Below, in pieces: positions 2,970-52,750 of a stretch of DNA of 64,000 nucleotides. Under the pieces are notes generated by a model. The model was not told where the DNA came from. It worked only from the letters and a program-made list of their open reading frames with translations, and ran no database searches. A program made the position numbers and the translations under genes. Location: positions 1,806-65,805 of the forward strand of contig JBIIGJ010000003.1 of NCBI GenBank assembly GCA_044236455.1, written 5' to 3'. Within the stretch, counting starts at the first letter, position 1. The number at the start of each line of letters is the position of its first letter. The stretch comes from Pirellulales bacterium (GTDB lineage: Bacteria > Planctomycetota > Planctomycetia > Pirellulales > UBA1268).

Positions 2970-3006
2970 CCAAAAGAAAAGGACCCGTGGTTTGAACCAC
3001 GGGTCC
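2970..3006 (-). terminator. Orphan Rho-independent terminator-like hairpin (reads correctly only on the minus strand)
   Basis: There is a perfect 10-bp stem, GGACCCGTGG (2981-2990) paired with CCACGGGTCC (2997-3006), and a 6-nt loop. On the minus strand the hairpin is followed by TTTTCTTTTGG (complement of 2970-2980). No annotated minus-strand gene lies upstream of it, between 3007 and 3347. Confidence 0.45.
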
Positions 3007-3347: not shown

Positions 3348-6062
<2,715 letters not shown>

Positions 6063-7964: not shown

Positions 7965-8062
7965 TCCCGTCGCTTCCGCTCAGGGCTTGTATTGGGGCGT
8001 GGGCTGACGGTTCATGGCCGCGCTGCCCTTGCCATAAAAGCCCCGGGCGGAAGCCCGGGGAC
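7965..8062. repeat. Copy 1 of a ~98-bp TIR/hairpin intergenic element (MITE/REP-like)
   Basis: The sequence is TCCCGTCGCTTCCGCTCAGGGCTTGTATTGGGG...AAAAGCCCCGGGCGGAAGCCCGGGGAC. The 5' 33 nt are identical to the copy at 12089. The 3' hairpin is CCCCGGGC-GGAA-GCCCGGGG (8041-8060). The ends are imperfect inverted repeats (GTCCCGTCGCTTCCGC versus the reverse complement GTCCCCGGGCTTCCGC). Confidence 0.85.
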
Positions 8063-10466
8063 TGTGTTCACCCGACGGCTTGCTGCCGAAGATGCCGTCA
8101 CGACGCACCACCTGCCGCCGCTGCACGAAGGCGTCGGTGACGACCAAAAGCGCCGGCAGAAACACGAGCTCCGCGATCGTGGCCGCGGCCACCGCGGCGC
8201 AGGCGAGCATGCCGAAGCCCGCTAGCGCTGGCACGGAGCTCACCGTCACTGCCGCAAACCCGATGGCCAGCACGAGGCCGCCGATCACGACCGCATTGCC
8301 CGTCTCCGCCACGGCACGGCGGATGGCGCTGGCGATCGAAAGCCCCTCGCGGCGCTGCCGCTGCAGTGCCGAAAGCACGTGCACCGTGTCGTCCACGGCG
8401 AGTCCCAGGCAGACGTTGAACACGATCACCGTCGCGGGGTCGAGTGACCTTCCCAGTGCGACCAACAGCGCTCCGATCACCGCGAGCGGGAAGACGTTGG
8501 GAATCAGGCTCACGATCCCCGCCAGCGGCGAGCGGAAGGCGAGGGCGAGGATGCCGCCGATGACGGCCACCTCGAGCAGCAGGCTCGAGCCAAGGTCGCG
8601 CACCAGCTGGCGGATGTTGCGGGCCGAGACGACCGACATGCCTGCCAGTTCAAACGTCCAGCCGGGCCGTTTGGCCGCGAGCGTGGCCAGCCCAGCATCG
8701 ATCCTGTCGTAGACGCCTTCCAGCTTCCGCGATCCCAGATCGCTCACGCGGGCCCGCACGATCGCCATGCGGTCCTGCTCGTCGACCAGATCGCGAAACT
8801 CGGCGGCATCGAGCCGCTGCCTGGCCCGTTCCGGCAGTGGGCCGGCCACCGTGGACAGCGATATCGCCCGCGTGATCCCGCCCGATCGTACGAGCACGTC
8901 GTGCACCTCGTCGAGCGACTCCAGCACCGGCGCATCGACCCAGCCAAGACCCTCCGGCCAGCGAACCACCACGTCGACGCCCATCGCGCCGCCAAACTCC
9001 TTGTCGACGTGGGCGAGCGCCTGGGAGGCTGCGGCTCCCCGCGGCAGGCTGTCTGCCACGTGGTTGTCGGCATCGAGCCCCGCGGCCACGGCGGCCAGCA
9101 GGAGCGTGGCGACGCAGCCGACCGCCGAGATCAACCGGGCGTGCCGCACCGAGAAGGCCGTGAGGCCAGCCGCCAGGCGGCCCGCGTGGCGGGATGATCG
9201 TCCCAGTCGCAGACCGCTGAAGGCGGGCGTGGAGGCGAGCAGCGGAGTGATCAGCGTGACCGCGAGGAAACTCGCCACGGCGCCCGCTGCCGCGGCCAGG
9301 CCGAAGTTGCGGACCGCGTCGATCCGCGCCGCAGCCAGTGACGCGAAGCCGATCGCCGTCACCAGGCTCGTCAGGCCGCAGGCCGCGCCTACCCGCCGGA
9401 TGGCGCCGCTCGATGCGGCCACGCCAGCCACACCACGCCGCGCGCTGCGGCGCATGTCTTCGATGAAGTGGATCGAATCACAGGTTCCCACCACGAGTGC
9501 CAGCGACGGCACCACGCTGGTGAGCAGGTTCACCGGCACTCCGCAGAGGCCGAGGAGGCCCATCGCCCATACCGCGCCCACGAACGGCGGCACGCAGGCG
9601 ACGATCGTGGCCCGGATGCTCCGGGCCACGGCTGCCGAAAGCACGACCGCCAGGCCGAGGCCCAGCGAGTTGAAGAGCAGCATGTCGCGCCGGAGGGCCT
9701 GCGCCGCTTGCTCGCGGAGGGACGGCAGGCCGGTGAGTGCCAGTTTCAGCACGCCCGAGCCGTCGTCTGCCTGCTCGTCGGCGAGCAGTTTTTCGATGCG
9801 GGCCACCACCTCGCCCAGCCGGGGTGGCCTGTCGGCGGCGGCCTCCAGCCGGGCGATGAGCAGGCTGGAGGCCGCGTTGGCGGAGAGCAGGTGGCCGGTG
9901 ATCAGCGGATGGTCGATGGCGCGGGCCCTGGCGGCCTCGCCCTCCGCTGCGGCGAGTTCGCCCTCGACGTGCGGGATCACCGGCAGCACCGCGCCGACGA
10001 CGCCCTGGCGGCGGACGTCGAACATCGACCGCACCTGCTCCACGCCATCGACATGCGCCAGCCTGTCGGCGAGCGACCGGAGGGCCTCCAGTGACGGGCC
10101 GTCGAACAGGTCGCCCGAGCGGGCCGTGGCCTGGATGATGCAATCCCGGTCGGGCGCCCCGAAACGGTCTGCCACCTCATCCACCAGACGAAAATCGGCA
10201 GCGGCATCCCTCAGGAGCGACCGGAGATCGTCGTCGATCTTCAGGCGGGACAGCCCGACCGCGGCCAGTAGCGTCAGGAGCCCGACGGCGAGTGCGGCGA
10301 AGAATCGCCAGCGGGACGGGGCAGGAGGTGCAGTTCCTCCGGATCGACGATCCAGCCCCGGCAGTCCGGCACCCCGCAGCGGCAGGGAATCGCCGCGTCC
10401 GCTGGCCAGCAATAGTCGATCAGCAGTTCGTCGCCCGCGTTGATCGAACGGATCGTTTGCAGCCAC
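7980..10466 (-). CDS. MMPL/RND-superfamily transporter (HpnN/MmpL-like lipid exporter); start codon uncertain
   Basis: The protein is 828 aa with two blocks of about 6 TM helices, each preceded by a soluble loop (..SIHFIEDMRRSARRG.., ..VDDTVHVLSALQRQRREG..), which is typical MMPL/SSD topology. The longest ORF overlaps the upstream SET gene by 193 nt. The first TM (SRWRFFAALAVGLL) begins near 10316, so a downstream non-ATG start is possible. The last ~27 codons lie inside repeat copy 1. Confidence 0.85.
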   Translation of the reverse strand: MAANDPFDQRGRRTADRLLLASGRGDSLPLRGAGLPGLDRRSGGTAPPAPSRWRFFAALAVGLLTLLAAVGLSRLKIDDDLRSLLRDAAADFRLVDEVADRFGAPDRDCIIQATARSGDLFDGPSLEALRSLADRLAHVDGVEQVRSMFDVRRQGVVGAVLPVIPHVEGELAAAEGEAARARAIDHPLITGHLLSANAASSLLIARLEAAADRPPRLGEVVARIEKLLADEQADDGSGVLKLALTGLPSLREQAAQALRRDMLLFNSLGLGLAVVLSAAVARSIRATIVACVPPFVGAVWAMGLLGLCGVPVNLLTSVVPSLALVVGTCDSIHFIEDMRRSARRGVAGVAASSGAIRRVGAACGLTSLVTAIGFASLAAARIDAVRNFGLAAAAGAVASFLAVTLITPLLASTPAFSGLRLGRSSRHAGRLAAGLTAFSVRHARLISAVGCVATLLLAAVAAGLDADNHVADSLPRGAAASQALAHVDKEFGGAMGVDVVVRWPEGLGWVDAPVLESLDEVHDVLVRSGGITRAISLSTVAGPLPERARQRLDAAEFRDLVDEQDRMAIVRARVSDLGSRKLEGVYDRIDAGLATLAAKRPGWTFELAGMSVVSARNIRQLVRDLGSSLLLEVAVIGGILALAFRSPLAGIVSLIPNVFPLAVIGALLVALGRSLDPATVIVFNVCLGLAVDDTVHVLSALQRQRREGLSIASAIRRAVAETGNAVVIGGLVLAIGFAAVTVSSVPALAGFGMLACAAVAAATIAELVFLPALLVVTDAFVQRRQVVRRDGIFGSKPSGEHSPRASARGFYGKGSAAMNRQPTPQYKP

Positions 10467-12062: not shown

Positions 12063-12088
12063 AGTGAGTTCGCGGCATTCACGCGGAG

Positions 12089-12186
12089 TCCCGTCGCTTC
12101 CGCTCAGGGCTTGTATTGGGGGATGCTGCGACCGTTGATGGTTGCGTTGCCTTTCCCATGAAAGCCCCGGGTGGAAACCCGGGGAC
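12089..12186. repeat. Copy 2 of the TIR/hairpin element
   Basis: The sequence is TCCCGTCGCTTCCGCTCAGGGCTTGTATTGGGG...GAAAGCCCCGGGTGGAAACCCGGGGAC. The hairpin is CCCCGGGT-GGAA-ACCCGGGG (12165-12184). It shows a compensatory C:G to T:A change relative to copy 1. It lies 27 nt after the EEP stop and 16 nt after the stop of the convergent isomerase gene. Confidence 0.85.
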
Positions 12187-21453: not shown

Positions 21454-21536
21454 GGAGGGTAAGCGAATTGGCCAGCGGTCTGACTCGAAATCAGATGCCC
21501 AGCAATGGGTTGTGGGTTCGAATCCCATGCCCTCCG
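21454..21536 (+). tRNA. tRNA-Ser (anticodon CGA), class II with long variable arm; D-arm non-canonical by eye
   Basis: The acceptor is GGAGGGT/GCCCTCC. The anticodon arm is TCTGA-CTCGAAA-TCAGA (anticodon CGA). The variable arm is TGCCCAGCAATGGGTTG. The T-arm is GTGGG-TTCGAAT-CCCAT, and the discriminator is G. I could not fold a 3-4 bp D-stem from AAGCGAATTGGCCAGCGG. A strong terminator immediately downstream on the same strand supports expression. Confidence 0.7.
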
Positions 21537-45548: not shown

Positions 45549-46760
45549 TCAGCCCCGCCGGTCGATGACCAGCGGGTCGTGCGACCGGACATCGCCGATC
45601 CGCAGGGAGGCCTTCCCCGAGAGCAGGTCATCGACGAGCGATCCCACCACTTCCGCCCGCCAGCCCGAGGCCAGCAGCGGCGTCCGCTCGTCGTCGCCAT
45701 CCCAGTAGCCGAGCTTGTAGGCCAGCAGGTCACGCATGTCGGAGGAGGTGCCGACGAGCGCCGGTGCCAGGTGCATCTGCCGGCAGACGCCCGCTACCGC
45801 CGTCGCCAGAAACTGCCCGAGCACCGCAAGCTGAGGGGGCGGCGCCCGGTGCTTCTCGCCACCGGGGCACTCCTCATCGGGAAGTTCGAGGCCGCGTTGA
45901 ATCGCGTCCGACAAGCCGCGGAGGATGTGCCGTAGGTCCGAACGCTGCATGCCGCGGATGGCCGAGATCTGCCGCTCGTCGGCGCTCTTCCGCTTGCAGA
46001 GTTCCACGAGCAGGTCGTCGCGGAGCACCCGCTTGGGTGGCATGTCGCGGGATTCCGCCACGCTGTCGCGCCAGTGCCAGAGTTCGCGGGCGATCGCCAG
46101 CTCACGCCGCGACAGGCCGGAGAGGCCCGACACCCTGCGCCATCGCTTCCGCACGAACGACTCCTCCACCTCGTCCTGCCAGGACTGCATCTCGTCCTGC
46201 ATCCAGGCGGTCCGTCCCGACGTGGCGAGCTTCCCCTCCAGCTTCTTCCAGAGCTTTTCAAGGTGGCGAACGTCGTCGAGGGCGTATTCGAGCTGGGCCG
46301 GCGTGAGCGGTCGCTGCCGCCAGTCGGTCCGCGTCTCCCCCTTGTTGGTTGGCAGGTTCAAAAACCGCCGCACGATCGAGGCATAGCCGGCGGGGTAGTC
46401 GTGGTCGACAAGCCCCGAGGCCACCTGCACGTCGAAGAGCGACGACGGCCGGGCCTTGATGGCGTGCAGGATGAATCCCATCTCCTCGCGGCCCGCATGC
46501 ACGACCGTGGTGCGGCCGGGCTCGGTGAGCAGCCGCCAGAACGGATCCAGCTCACGCACCTTGAGCGTGTCGATCACCGCCAGCGTGCCGGGCGCCGCCA
46601 CCTGGATCAGGCAGAGCTGGCTTCGATAGGTGTGCTCCGAGACGAATTCCGTGTCGAAGGCGACGTGCGGATGCGCGGCCAGCCGGTCGACGAGGGCCCC
46701 GAGTTGCGACTCGGTCGTGACCAGATCGTAGGCGTCTTCGGAAGTGTGGGCTGGGGTCAC
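45549..46760 (-). CDS. rnd: Ribonuclease D
   Basis: The DEDDy exonuclease block reads ..HVAFDTEFVSEHTYRSQLCLIQV...HAGREEMGFIL...YALDDVRHL. An HRDC-like region follows (..ELAIARELWHWRDSVAESRDMPPKRVLRDDLLVELC..). Confidence 0.9.
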   Translation of the reverse strand: MTPAHTSEDAYDLVTTESQLGALVDRLAAHPHVAFDTEFVSEHTYRSQLCLIQVAAPGTLAVIDTLKVRELDPFWRLLTEPGRTTVVHAGREEMGFILHAIKARPSSLFDVQVASGLVDHDYPAGYASIVRRFLNLPTNKGETRTDWRQRPLTPAQLEYALDDVRHLEKLWKKLEGKLATSGRTAWMQDEMQSWQDEVEESFVRKRWRRVSGLSGLSRRELAIARELWHWRDSVAESRDMPPKRVLRDDLLVELCKRKSADERQISAIRGMQRSDLRHILRGLSDAIQRGLELPDEECPGGEKHRAPPPQLAVLGQFLATAVAGVCRQMHLAPALVGTSSDMRDLLAYKLGYWDGDDERTPLLASGWRAEVVGSLVDDLLSGKASLRIGDVRSHDPLVIDRRG

Positions 46761-50377: not shown

Positions 50378-51487
50378 ATGAACGTCATGCAGTCCATGAC
50401 CACAGCACGTCGCCTCCTCGGCATTGCCCTGGGGATGGTTTTCATTGCTGCCCTCGGCCTGCCGGCATTGGCCACGCTGATGCAGGAAGACGATCCGTTT
50501 GCCGACGAACTCAACCCGTTCGGCACCGGGAAATCAACGCCCCGCGGGGCGGTCCCGCCCCGCGCGGAACCACTTCCGGAGCCGGCCCGCCCCGCGACCA
50601 CGCCCCAGCCGAAACTGCCGGTTCCCTTTCCTGAAACGATGGTTCCGGAGGAGCCGGCGAATCGCCCGCAGCGCGGTCTTGGTCGGCAGGACCGGCCCTC
50701 TTCCCGCGAGCGGGAGCCGGGCTTCCGCGCCCCCGGCGGGTCGCGCGCTCGAGCGTTTGGTTTCGACGATTCCGACAACGAGCCGGAGCGGACTCCGTCG
50801 GAGGCCGAGAACAAACTCGCCGAGGCGGATCGTCTCGAACGGCAGGGGAAGCTGGAAGAGGCCCGCGACGTGCTTCGTGATGCGGTGAAACTCGACCCCG
50901 CGCTGATGATGGGGCATCTGGCGATGGGAGTGGTGCTGCGGCAGTTGGGTGATTTCAGGGGCTCGGTGGACGCCTGCTCGAAGGGGATCGAGGTCGATCC
51001 GCAGGAGCCGGAGTTGTATCTGCGGCGGGGCATCGCCTGGTATCACCTGGGCCTGTACGGCATCGCCCTGGAAGACTTCGAGGAGGCGGCGGGGATGTCC
51101 TACGACGATCCGCGGCCTGAACTCTGGCGAGGGCTGACGCTCACCGAACTCGACCGGCCGTTGGAGGCGATCAACGCCTATGCGTCGGCCATCCGCCGCG
51201 ACCGCACTTGCATGCTGGCGTATCTCAACCGTGGGCTTGCCTATCTGTCCACTGACGAGCCCCGCAAGGCGGAGTTCGACTTCAATCAGGCGATCCGACA
51301 AAAGCCGAAGGATGCCCGCGCCTGGTCCAACCGGGGCGCGGCCCAAGCACGGCAGGGGCGGTATCACGAGGCGATCGAATCCTACGAGACCGCGCTGGAG
51401 ATCAGCCCAGATGACAAGGCTACGAGGCGGAATCTCGAGGCCGCCCGCCGTATGGCAGGCCAGGAATCGGTGACGCGCAGCCGGTAG
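50378..51487 (+). CDS. Secreted/anchored TPR-repeat protein
   Basis: The signal/anchor is MNVMQSMTTARRLLGIALGMVFIAALGLPALA, followed by a Pro/Arg/Glu-rich linker. At least 6 TPR units follow (..LEEARDVLRDAVKLDP.., ..AWYHLGLYGIALEDFEEA.., ..NRGLAYLSTDEPRKAEFDFNQAIRQKP.., ..GRYHEAIESYETALEISP..). Confidence 0.85.
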   Translation: MNVMQSMTTARRLLGIALGMVFIAALGLPALATLMQEDDPFADELNPFGTGKSTPRGAVPPRAEPLPEPARPATTPQPKLPVPFPETMVPEEPANRPQRGLGRQDRPSSREREPGFRAPGGSRARAFGFDDSDNEPERTPSEAENKLAEADRLERQGKLEEARDVLRDAVKLDPALMMGHLAMGVVLRQLGDFRGSVDACSKGIEVDPQEPELYLRRGIAWYHLGLYGIALEDFEEAAGMSYDDPRPELWRGLTLTELDRPLEAINAYASAIRRDRTCMLAYLNRGLAYLSTDEPRKAEFDFNQAIRQKPKDARAWSNRGAAQARQGRYHEAIESYETALEISPDDKATRRNLEAARRMAGQESVTRSR

Positions 51488-51497
51488 GGGCACGTTG

Positions 51498-51576
51498 TCC
51501 CGTCGCTTCCGCTCCGGGCTTGGTTACGGCGGTTACGTATCGTTTGCCAACAAGCCCCCGGCGGAAGCCGGGGGAC
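51498..51576. repeat. Copy 3 (shorter, 79 bp) of the TIR/hairpin element
   Basis: The sequence is TCCCGTCGCTTCCGCTCCGGGCTTGGTTACGG...CAAGCCCCCGGCGGAAGCCGGGGGAC. The hairpin is CCCCCGGC-GGAA-GCCGGGGG (51555-51574), with a second, independent compensatory pair change. It lies 10 nt after the TPR gene stop (51487) and 34 nt beyond the convergent gene stop (51611). Confidence 0.8.
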
Positions 51577-51610
51577 GGGCCGTCCACCGGGCGGGGTCGA
51601 TCGCTTCCCC

Positions 51611-52750
51611 TCAGGGTTTTGGCACGGCGAAGACTCGCAGCGTGCCGTTGTTGATCGTCCAGTCAAGTGCCAGCGGGTCGAGGATGTTGTCGAGCAGTTG
51701 GTCGCGAGACGCATCCTTGACGGACGCCCGCACGATCTCTGTCTGGGCGATACCGGCACGTTTGAGCGACTCCCGATCGAGATCGAGCGTCAGGCCCAGC
51801 CGTACGGCGATCGCCGCGAGCAACTCCTCCAGCGGTGCCGCGACCTTCAGTGAGAACGTGTGCTGGTCCGCGGCTGGCGTCGGCTTGGGAGAGGGTCGGC
51901 GGCCCGGCAGCTTGGCGGCGGTGGTCTCTCCTCCGCGTGTGGCGGGCGGAAGCCCGGCATCGATGGCGATGATCATGCCAGTGGCAATGGGAGAGGACTG
52001 GCCACCCGCCTTCGCCGGAGCGGCCTGCCAGTCGACCCGGAGATCGAATGCCGCGAGCAGCAGGTCGAGCCGTTCGGCCAGCGTCATCTCGGGCAATGAC
52101 ATCGCGGGGAGGTGATCGTGCGGCACCGTGTCGATGCCGGTGACGGCGATGCCCGCCTGTGCGGTGGTGGCTGCCAGGAGATCGCGGGGGCGGGCTCCAG
52201 CGGGCCACGACAACAGCCGCGCCGTGTTGAGCACGGCTCGCTGGCGGGGAGGCAGCGAGGCCACCTGTGACTGGCGGGCTGCTTCGGCGCGGATGACGAT
52301 GGCCGCCTCGCCACGAGGCACGATCCGGATCGATGACTTGAGCACCGCCACCTCACCGCCAGCGATCGTGGCACCACGCTCGAGCACGTCGAGCAGTGGT
52401 TCGCCCCGGCATTCGAGCCGGATGGCGGTGTCGGGATCGAGCCGGCGATCGACCAGCACAGGCAGGCCTGCCGTTTCGCTCACGCGGCCCGCCCACTCCC
52501 GCAGTCCGATGCCGCTCCAGGTTGCCGTGATGGGGGCGTCGAGTTCCGCCGCGGCGGCCGGGCACGCATCTCCGACGATCCCCCAGATGATGCCTGCGAC
52601 CGTCGCGATCAGGCCGTAGCAACAGCGGCGCGCCGCGGTGCAGGCAGACGGGAACGCCTGGAGTGCAGTAGGCTCAGGCCCGCACCGGGATGAAACGGGC
52701 AGTGGCACAGGAACGCTCCGGGGAAACACTGCGGTGATGCTGCGGAGCAT
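51611..52750 (-). CDS. Hypothetical membrane-anchored protein with two STN/secretin-N-like beta-alpha modules (pattern only)
   Basis: Only the C-terminal 379 aa of ORF 51611..54595 are retained. The start is MLRSITAV.. (complement of 52748-52750). The TM segment is CCYGLIATVAGIIWGIV. Repeated modules are ..LREWAGRVSETAGLPVLVDRRLDPDTAIRLECRGEPLLDVLE.. and ..LEELLAAIAVRLGLTLDLDRESL..DQLLDNILDPLALDWTINNGTLRVF. The upstream part of the ORF is antisense to glpD. Confidence 0.6.
   Translation of the reverse strand: MLRSITAVFPRSVPVPLPVSSRCGPEPTALQAFPSACTAARRCCYGLIATVAGIIWGIVGDACPAAAAELDAPITATWSGIGLREWAGRVSETAGLPVLVDRRLDPDTAIRLECRGEPLLDVLERGATIAGGEVAVLKSSIRIVPRGEAAIVIRAEAARQSQVASLPPRQRAVLNTARLLSWPAGARPRDLLAATTAQAGIAVTGIDTVPHDHLPAMSLPEMTLAERLDLLLAAFDLRVDWQAAPAKAGGQSSPIATGMIIAIDAGLPPATRGGETTAAKLPGRRPSPKPTPAADQHTFSLKVAAPLEELLAAIAVRLGLTLDLDRESLKRAGIAQTEIVRASVKDASRDQLLDNILDPLALDWTINNGTLRVFAVPKP

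Follow-up and report, generated by a model that had tools for sequence, protein, structure and literature searches.

The class 3 group of TnpA_Y1 transposases has been described as 'principally present in Planctomycetes' (PMC6006769), and hairpins belonging to it have been listed (PMC6006769, Table S1). For example, in Planctopirus limnophila the hairpins beside class 3 tnpA_Y1 read CCG-GAA-GC-GTGA-GC-GA-CGG, with a second one carrying the loop GTCA, the Legionella hairpin reads CCGC-GA-CC-GTAA-GG-GA-GCGG, and the Solibacter hairpin reads CCGC-GA-CC-GTTA-GG-GA-GCG; about 600 genomic hairpin copies were reported in Solibacter, in an arrangement termed REPtron-like (PMC6006769). Systems of repetitive extragenic palindromic (REP) sequences and Y1 transposases have already been documented in Rhodopirellula baltica, a member of the Pirellulales (PMC3733652). 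In this study, we analysed a 64,000-nt stretch of DNA from a Pirellulales bacterium (assembly GCA_044236455.1, contig JBIIGJ010000003.1, positions 1,806 to 65,805; hereafter the window), which holds three copies of a repeated hairpin element. We believe, with a probability of roughly 0.6, that the three elements are copies of a family of the kind of REPs, REP doublets forming hairpins (REPINs) and bacterial interspersed mosaic elements (BIMEs), which is carried by uncultured Planctomycetes (metagenome-assembled genomes, MAGs, of Pirellulales or Planctomycetaceae) and mobilised by a Y1 enzyme.

Element Copies in the Window and Their Two Modules

The three elements were located at 7965-8062, 12089-12186 and 51498-51576, all in the same orientation and each 3' of a + strand stop codon, which lies 45, 26 and 10 nt upstream of copies 1, 2 and 3, respectively; the neighbouring genes are convergent. 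The + strand 25-mer TCCCGTCGCTTCCGCTC(A/C)GGGCTTG occurred three times, starting at 7965, 12089 and 51498, with 0 expected from 100 shuffles, which confirmed the three copies that a first-pass annotation had reported from the letters alone, with their starts and ends. Hairpins of an 8-bp stem and a GGAA loop were found at 8041-8060, 12165-12184 and 51555-51574. The hairpin arms were CCCCGGGC/GCCCGGGG in copy 1, CCCCGGGT/ACCCGGGG in copy 2 and CCCCCGGC/GCCGGGGG in copy 3, and they differed between copies only by paired changes, as had been claimed. Copies 1 and 2 were 98 nt long and had a related spacer in common, and copy 3, at 79 nt, was indeed 19 bp shorter. The element ends were imperfect inverted repeats: the 3' block, read on the minus strand, was identical to the 5' block at 18 of 24 positions, where 13 of 16 had been counted before. 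The whole element was predicted to fold as a single long hairpin on either strand (-43 to -57 kcal/mol, z about -4).

All modules were set in one register on the strand bearing the G-N-N-A loop. Each window element was an inverted dimer of two hairpin modules of ~25 nt, one of type A and one of type B. Type A corresponds to the 5' block on the minus strand and has the sequence AAG CCCG-GA-GC-GGAA-GC-GA-CGGG AC, in which a 4-bp stem is topped by an internal loop of tandem G.A/A.G, a second stem of 2 bp and a tetraloop of the form G-N-N-A; this hairpin is imperfect and conserved in sequence. Type B is the 3' hairpin, AAG CCCC(C/G)GGC GGAA GCC(G/C)GGGG AC, with a perfect 8-bp stem, and its frame is that of type A with Watson-Crick pairs in place of the G.A pairs. 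The features of the window were as follows.

7965-8062, + strand: copy 1, a full inverted dimer, with type A arm at 7965-7989 (A variant at 7982), spacer at 7990-8037 and type B arm at 8038-8062.
8041-8048/8053-8060, + strand: stem of the copy 1 type B arm, with a GGAA loop.
12070-12186, + strand: copy 2, with outer left arm at 12070-12088 (TCGCGGCATTCACGCGGAG), type A at 12089-12113, spacer, and type B at 12162-12186 (CCCCGGGT GGAA ACCCGGGG).
51498-51576, + strand: copy 3, with canonical type A at 51498-51522, a short spacer, and type B at 51552-51576 (CCCCCGGC GGAA GCCGGGGG).
7980-8063, - strand: element-derived 3' end of the MMPL/RND transporter open reading frame (ORF), whose final 27 codons (SPRASARGFYGKGSAAMNRQPTPQYKP), together with the TGA stop, come from the element.
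51590-51618, + strand: possible degenerate extra type A arm, 13 nt past copy 3, with an 18/25 match to type A judged by eye.

The left end of copy 2 was placed at ~12070, ~19 nt beyond 12089, because the flank is common to copies in other genomes (loci L014 and L065, 91-94% over 44-47 nt). Copy 1 is not purely intergenic: a minus-strand ORF of 828 aa encoding the MMPL transporter (7980-10466) reads through it and stops inside the element. The convergent minus-strand ORF has its TGA stop (51611-51613) within the degenerate arm past copy 3; the match of this arm is not significant alone, and adjacency and orientation are what suggest a possible extra type A arm there.

In the window and 110 related loci of Planctomycetes MAGs and metagenomes (0.71 Mb in total), 184 type A and 97 type B modules were found. 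Loop position 1 was G and position 4 was A in ~95% of the modules, with GGAA or GGGA as the usual loops, and GNRA loops accounted for about 85-90% of modules. The 5' foot of type A, nnAAG, was most often ACAAG (69), followed by CCAAG (31), GGAAG (16) and GCAAG (12). A strict pattern of the type A architecture (stem/GA/2-bp/GNNA/2-bp/GA/stem) was matched 150 times in the related loci and once in the window, where shuffles gave an expectation of 0.1; the window match was in copy 3. A further module of the arrays, AAGCCC-GA-GGC-GTGA-GCC-GA-GAGGAC, has the same GA/GNRA/GA core as type A. The spacers of the dimers measured 13-60 nt and simple dimers 62-107 nt. As RNA, type A was predicted to fold at -12.1 kcal/mol (z -4.1) on the GGAA strand versus -7.8 (z -1.7) on the complement; as DNA, the values were -5.2 and -4.2, respectively.

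Structure-Preserving Variation

The paired changes seen in the window hold in a larger set. Among 29 distinct type B 25-mers, 86% of the cells were paired, 6 of the 8 pairs changed on both sides and 0 of 500 shuffles reached the observed value. In 46 distinct dimers, the local hairpins were 96% paired, and the central pair was C-G in 22 and G-C in 19. The copies are related by descent, so that both the counts and the shuffle controls overstate independent covariation. In the long-range fold of the same dimers, 84.7% of positions were paired overall and the outer flank pair was G-C in 33 and A-U in 6, with no single changes; the central column, however, would face an invariant T and was broken in half of the sequences. 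Because the central column fails in this way, the local hairpin is taken as the conserved structure.

Type A was nearly invariant. Compensatory variants of its basal stem, CCCG/CGGG in the canonical module, were CCCC/GGGG in ten cases and CGTG/CACG in one, besides a variant with G.U, and all of them kept the GA-GC-GNNA-GC-GA core.

Family Size, Organisation and Genomic Context

The first-pass annotation had taken the three elements for copies of a family, and a dispersed, multi-copy family was borne out. Exact matches to a 21-mer from the 5' block were found at 74 loci in species-representative genomes, in about a dozen Planctomycetes MAGs, and in 28 JGI metagenome contigs. Nearly all of the genome matches were in MAGs labelled Planctomycetaceae, Pirellulales or Planctomycetia. 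Many matches lay within a few hundred nucleotides of contig ends, as is expected of repeats that break assemblies. Two carrier MAGs (L042, L005 and L058) showed synteny to the window, with a nucleotide identity of 74-86%, and the window therefore comes from a close relative. A metagenome contig reached via the MMPL homologue, L075, encodes an MMPL protein 99% identical to that of the window.

The 80-100 bp element had been regarded as the unit of the family, and this did not hold throughout: the unit that spreads and amplifies is often a single 5' module. The order of a type A followed by a type B arm was found in a minority of cases (35/132 in the first locus set), and 55 dimers were found; the other arrangements were singlets, A/A dimers and mosaic arrays in which further modules are joined by recurrent linkers. 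BIME-like mosaic arrays were seen in JBJTIV and JAIXPT, and the window itself has simple dimers only. Window copies 1 and 2 and the element in L037 had a spacer sequence in common, at 83-87% identity. In its organisation the family combines singlets as in REPs, doublets like REPINs and clusters like BIMEs.

Genomic contexts were counted for clusters with a gene call on both sides, and the counts are approximate, since the crude ORF caller, based on third-position G+C content (GC3), misses some genes. With this limit, 23 clusters were in convergent gaps, 21 in co-directional gaps, 6 in divergent gaps and 7 inside long ORFs. The earlier statement that every copy lies in a convergent gap 10-45 nt after a stop is right for the window, apart from the overlap of copy 1 with the MMPL ORF; elsewhere it fails, as copies also lie in tandem gaps and in frame inside genes, and what holds generally is placement downstream of genes. 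In co-directional gaps, module orientation was mixed with respect to gene direction. At ~3700-4000 of L008, several modules lie in frame within an ORF for a 915-aa U32 peptidase, apparently in a linker region, and their translations include ...SPRRKPGDS... and ...GVPSLPLRAC....

Orthologous Sites and Remodelled Gene Ends

At site 1, between the aminotransferase and MMPL genes, the orthologous sites in L076, L077 and L078 were without the element. In L075, three extra tandem 44-nt units (type A + 19 nt) stand ahead of copy 1, giving four type A modules versus one in the window. MMPL homologues at 65-88% identity end in ...DGIFGSEPLPWPASPRPT* or similar, and the element-encoded tail of 27 residues was present, among the MMPL homologues compared, only in the window protein and in P0001 (99% identity). 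The window and P0001 differed at two positions within the tail, both of them non-synonymous. The variant base of type A at 7982, A in place of C, creates the TGA stop of the MMPL gene. Judged from the homologues, copy 1 has replaced the native MMPL C-terminus (about 10-20 residues) and supplies the stop codon. The orthologous region of L076 (8188-8447) contains other repeats, tandem 15-nt CCACGGGGGCCTCGG-like units between two GTGGCGGCA(G/A)GATT...GTTGAAAAC units, and these appear to be another repeat family of the same lineage.

At site 2, between the Exo_endo_phos and AP_endonuc_2 genes, L076, L077 and L078 carry diverged elements in the same convergent gap, with homologous spacer and diverged arms. 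In one lineage, loop changes in both arms preserve the long-range pair; in another, a perfect hairpin stands where type A is expected. The site 2 element of L077 (~3900-4130) and L078 is bracketed by a 45-nt direct repeat (CCATCCCGCGTGCCATGCGGATCCGGGAAGCCCAACAACCCG), and this repeat is the linker unit that also joins elements in the JBJTIV arrays.

At site 3, next to a TPR gene, the element was inverted in L080-L082, and L079 had only the type B arm with partial repeats. The convergent minus-strand ORF at 51611 ends in ...TLRVFAVPKP*, and its L080 orthologue ends in ...TLRVFAD*; both the stop and the additional codons fall in the degenerate type-A-like stretch (51590-51618). This repeat family may therefore have remodelled a second gene end. 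Downstream of the HIT gene, L058 has a module array and the window only a 4-nt gap to the neighbouring gene, and L086 and L093 have, at the same locus, three versus two 35-nt type A units. Retention, gain or absence, inversion and copy-number change are all seen at orthologous sites, and the family is therefore both old and still changing.

Resemblance to Class 3 Hairpins and Proposed Mobilisation

The family is a new one of a known kind of element; it works like REPs, REPINs and BIMEs, and it is closest to the hairpins associated with class 3 Y1 transposases. When compared with the sequences of Table S1 (PMC6006769), the type A architecture was the same as that of the class 3 hairpins: a G+C stem of 3-4 bp, then an internal loop of GA..GA, a short stem of 2 bp and a tetraloop of the form G-N-N-A. 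The GTCA-loop variant of type A (L076 and L080) has the 14-mer GCGTCAGCGACGGG in common with the P. limnophila hairpin, and the two systems also agree in a purine-rich foot ending in AG and in high copy number. There are differences as well. In the P. limnophila hairpin, GAA stands opposite GA and the basal stem has 3 bp, no class 3 gene adjoins any copy in the loci examined here, and neither the pairing of an imperfect with a perfect-stem hairpin nor mosaic arrays have been described for class 3.

Because its architecture matches the Table S1 hairpins and the 14-mer is identical, we infer that type A would be the recognition hairpin of a class 3-type HUH Y1 enzyme, and that dimers and arrays would be its non-autonomous products. 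The hairpins would form in single-stranded DNA and be recognised by a HUH tyrosine (Y1) transposase with a single gene at another place in the genome, for which the class 3 TnpA_Y1 group is the likeliest candidate. This enzyme would be responsible for the copying and movement of modules and dimers and for their amplification in tandem. Insertions would be retained where they do little harm, chiefly after the stops of convergent or co-directional genes, and would remain there for a long time while they decay or rearrange in place. We also speculated that the family may be the 'REPIN population' of the little-studied class 3 HUH-Y1 transposases, in which an invariant, imperfect type A recognition arm, with its tandem G.A and GGNA loop, is coupled to a free-drifting perfect hairpin and type A by itself is amplified in tandem, in steps of 35-44 nt, between near-identical strains; this more specific proposal is tentative and, in our opinion, has about one chance in three.

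Several points weigh against mobilisation by such an enzyme. Six-frame motif scans of the window and the 110 loci, ~0.71 Mb of DNA in which a gene present once per genome need not fall, found no HUH/Y1 signature, neither the RAYT-type (REP-associated tyrosine transposase) Y..NP nor the class 3 NHVH ... YV[VI]xEQ, and the element is therefore tied to the enzyme by analogy only. The foot of type A is nnAAG, not the CnGA(G) of class 3 hairpins, with only the terminal AG in common. In window copies 1 and 2, a C-to-A change weakens the type A hairpin, and these copies may be inactive relics. As for the covariation, kinship inflates the shuffle support, and many of the counted 'events' are subfamily expansions. 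Template switching or gene conversion can also produce compensatory changes in DNA palindromes when there is no selection.

Alternative Explanations

It is conceivable, although we consider it unlikely, that the element is an RNA element selected by the host, a bidirectional terminator or 3'-end mRNA stabiliser, which has spread by recombination and duplication without a dedicated transposase. Such a role would suit the position of every window copy, 10-45 nt past a + strand stop and facing a convergent gene, and the enrichment of the family downstream of genes; it would also suit the predominance of GNRA loops and the fact that G.U wobble variants, and no A.C, occur on the GGAA strand. In a terminator scan, the copy 1 hairpin followed by CTTTTAT was terminator-like on the minus strand, and the JAIXPT subfamily has AAAAA before the hairpin, which gives a T-run on the opposite strand. 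However, no window copy has a + strand U-tract after the hairpin (the tails are ACUGUG and ACGGGC), copies 2 and 3 failed the terminator scan on both strands, and the copy 1 hairpin is within the MMPL ORF, 60 nt before its stop. A terminator would need neither modules in frame inside genes nor tandem arrays of 35-44 nt, the module orientation is mixed relative to the flanking genes in tandem contexts, and orthologous genes do without the element. The invariant GA-GC-GGNA-GC-GA core, in addition, matches transposase-associated hairpins. RNA hairpins at transcript 3' ends may contribute to termination or to protection from 3' exonucleases, and we believe that this role is probably a side effect and not the reason for the family.

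There is little chance that the element is a classical miniature inverted-repeat transposable element (MITE), that is, a deletion derivative of an insertion sequence (IS) with a DDE transposase, mobilised in trans via double-stranded terminal inverted repeats. The first-pass annotation had offered MITEs and REP/BIME-type elements as alternatives, of which the second is retained here. The family does resemble MITEs such as Correia/NEMIS, ERIC and RUP in its size (62-107 bp), in its imperfect terminal inverted repeats of ~25 bp (18/24), in a transcript that would form one long hairpin, and in occasional in-frame insertion and replacement of gene ends; dispersed copies with a common spacer (window copies 1 and 2 and L037, as given above) and the placement of the L077/L078 element between 45-nt direct repeats also fit. 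Against this, no short target-site duplication surrounds the window copies or others, and the 45-nt repeat of L077 is an array linker unit. Filled and empty orthologous sites compared by eye showed no target-site duplication either, in intergenic DNA that is too diverged for exact boundaries. The arms occur independently, as singlets and in head-to-tail tandem arrays, and differ from those of MITEs in that each acts as a unit of its own, open to tandem amplification. No parent IS was found, and no inverted arm pair encloses a transposase, only housekeeping genes (prmC-prfA and those for a Dabb protein, an AraC regulator and a U32 peptidase) being enclosed. Moreover, one arm is conserved in sequence and the other in structure only, unlike two sites for one transposase that binds double-stranded DNA.

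A short conserved coding sequence (minus-strand ...RGF(Y/H)GKG...PQYKP*) or a chance local segmental duplication, which the similar minus-strand peptides of copies 1 and 2, both ending in PQYKP*, might suggest, is highly improbable and effectively refuted by the hundreds of copies in other genomes in many contexts and orientations, while the reading frame is interrupted by a stop in copy 3, whose spacer is also different, both tail differences between the window and P0001 are non-synonymous, and the frame of copy 2 belongs to no real gene. A PQYKP* small peptide was accordingly ruled out on the copy 3 stop and the non-synonymous variants, and DNA identity accounts for the likeness.

Comparison with Other Repeat Families

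Among the families other than class 3 hairpins, REPs and REPINs with their RAYTs (Bertels and Rainey 2011, PMC3116915; Nunvar and others) are similar in that two inverted imperfect palindromes of ~25 nt are joined by a spacer into a long hairpin. They are likewise extragenic and mostly downstream of genes, occur as singlets and dimers, and persist for long at orthologous sites with decay in place. Like them, the present family consists of imperfect palindromes of 20-40 nt that are high in copy number and mainly extragenic. It differs in that its arms are of two types, making a heterodimer, and in that the GTAG (GT[AG]G) tag of REPs and REPINs was absent from both ends of type A and type B on both strands.

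The BIMEs of enterobacteria are bound by IHF, gyrase or Pol I. They resemble the present family in head-to-tail and mosaic arrays, recurring linkers and variable repeat number, as seen here in related MAGs and L075, but the sequences are unrelated and the window has simple dimers only.

In CGTC-tagged REPs, an unpaired CGTC is followed directly by a stem of 8-9 bp whose first pairs are A/T, a loop of 4-5 nt and a CCA tail (PMC3733652). The present family shares with them CGTC at one end of type A (+ strand), a predominance of head-to-head dimers and the lack of an adjacent transposase (Di Nocera et al. 2013, PMC3733652). In type A, however, the CGTC belongs to the region of the stem and internal loop, all stem pairs are G+C and a CCA tail is lacking, so the family falls outside the definition of CGTC-tagged REPs.

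In Rfam (release 15), nothing in the window reached the gathering threshold except a tRNA, and the weak hits were to generic hairpins and miRNA precursor models. The best sub-threshold hit was Acido-Lenti-1 RNA (RF01687) at 21.7 bits, with which the family has in common a G+C hairpin of 8 bp, its 4-nt loop and the GCU after it; the gathering score is 37, and only the generic hairpin aligns, with 21 model positions skipped. A BLAST search of copy 3 against a plasmid collection gave only a chance 24-nt match in Rhizobium. No description of this particular family was found in Rfam or in a limited search of the full-text literature.

Other Observations in the Window

The tRNA gene is 83 nt long and lies at 21454-21536 on the + strand (Rfam, 34.9 bits). 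In L058, the tRNA and the adjacent HIT gene are joined to a homologue of window positions 45559-46434, and this junction therefore points to a rearrangement between relatives. Two perfect hairpins unrelated to this family were also seen, GGACCCGTGGT-TTGA-ACCACGGGTCC at 2981-3006 with an 11-bp stem and CGCGGGGCG-GTCC-CGCCCCGCG at 50543-50564 with a 9-bp stem. GC skew was positive in all 8-kb bins of the window, and three copies in the same orientation are too few to speak of a replication-strand bias.

Significance

The present analysis does not overturn the current understanding of REP-type elements, and the result will not surprise a specialist. It adds a well-defined REP-like family, with its modules, dimers and arrays defined, to a phylum in which such repeats are little described, and the hairpin architecture ties this family to the class 3 Y1 transposases, for which targets had been described at only a handful of loci inspected by hand. 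The repeats fragment MAG assemblies, with many copies at contig ends, and the strain-level length polymorphisms could serve as markers. Since protein C-termini are altered, that of the MMPL transporter being an example, these repeats should be masked or flagged when Planctomycetes genomes are annotated. If the tentative proposal of a REPIN population of class 3 HUH-Y1 transposases is true, the grammar of this family would be distinct from that of gammaproteobacterial REPINs, and these freshwater Planctomycetes would provide a natural setting for a domesticated transposase of single-stranded DNA that is still remodelling the 3' ends of genes by replacing C-termini and supplying stop codons.

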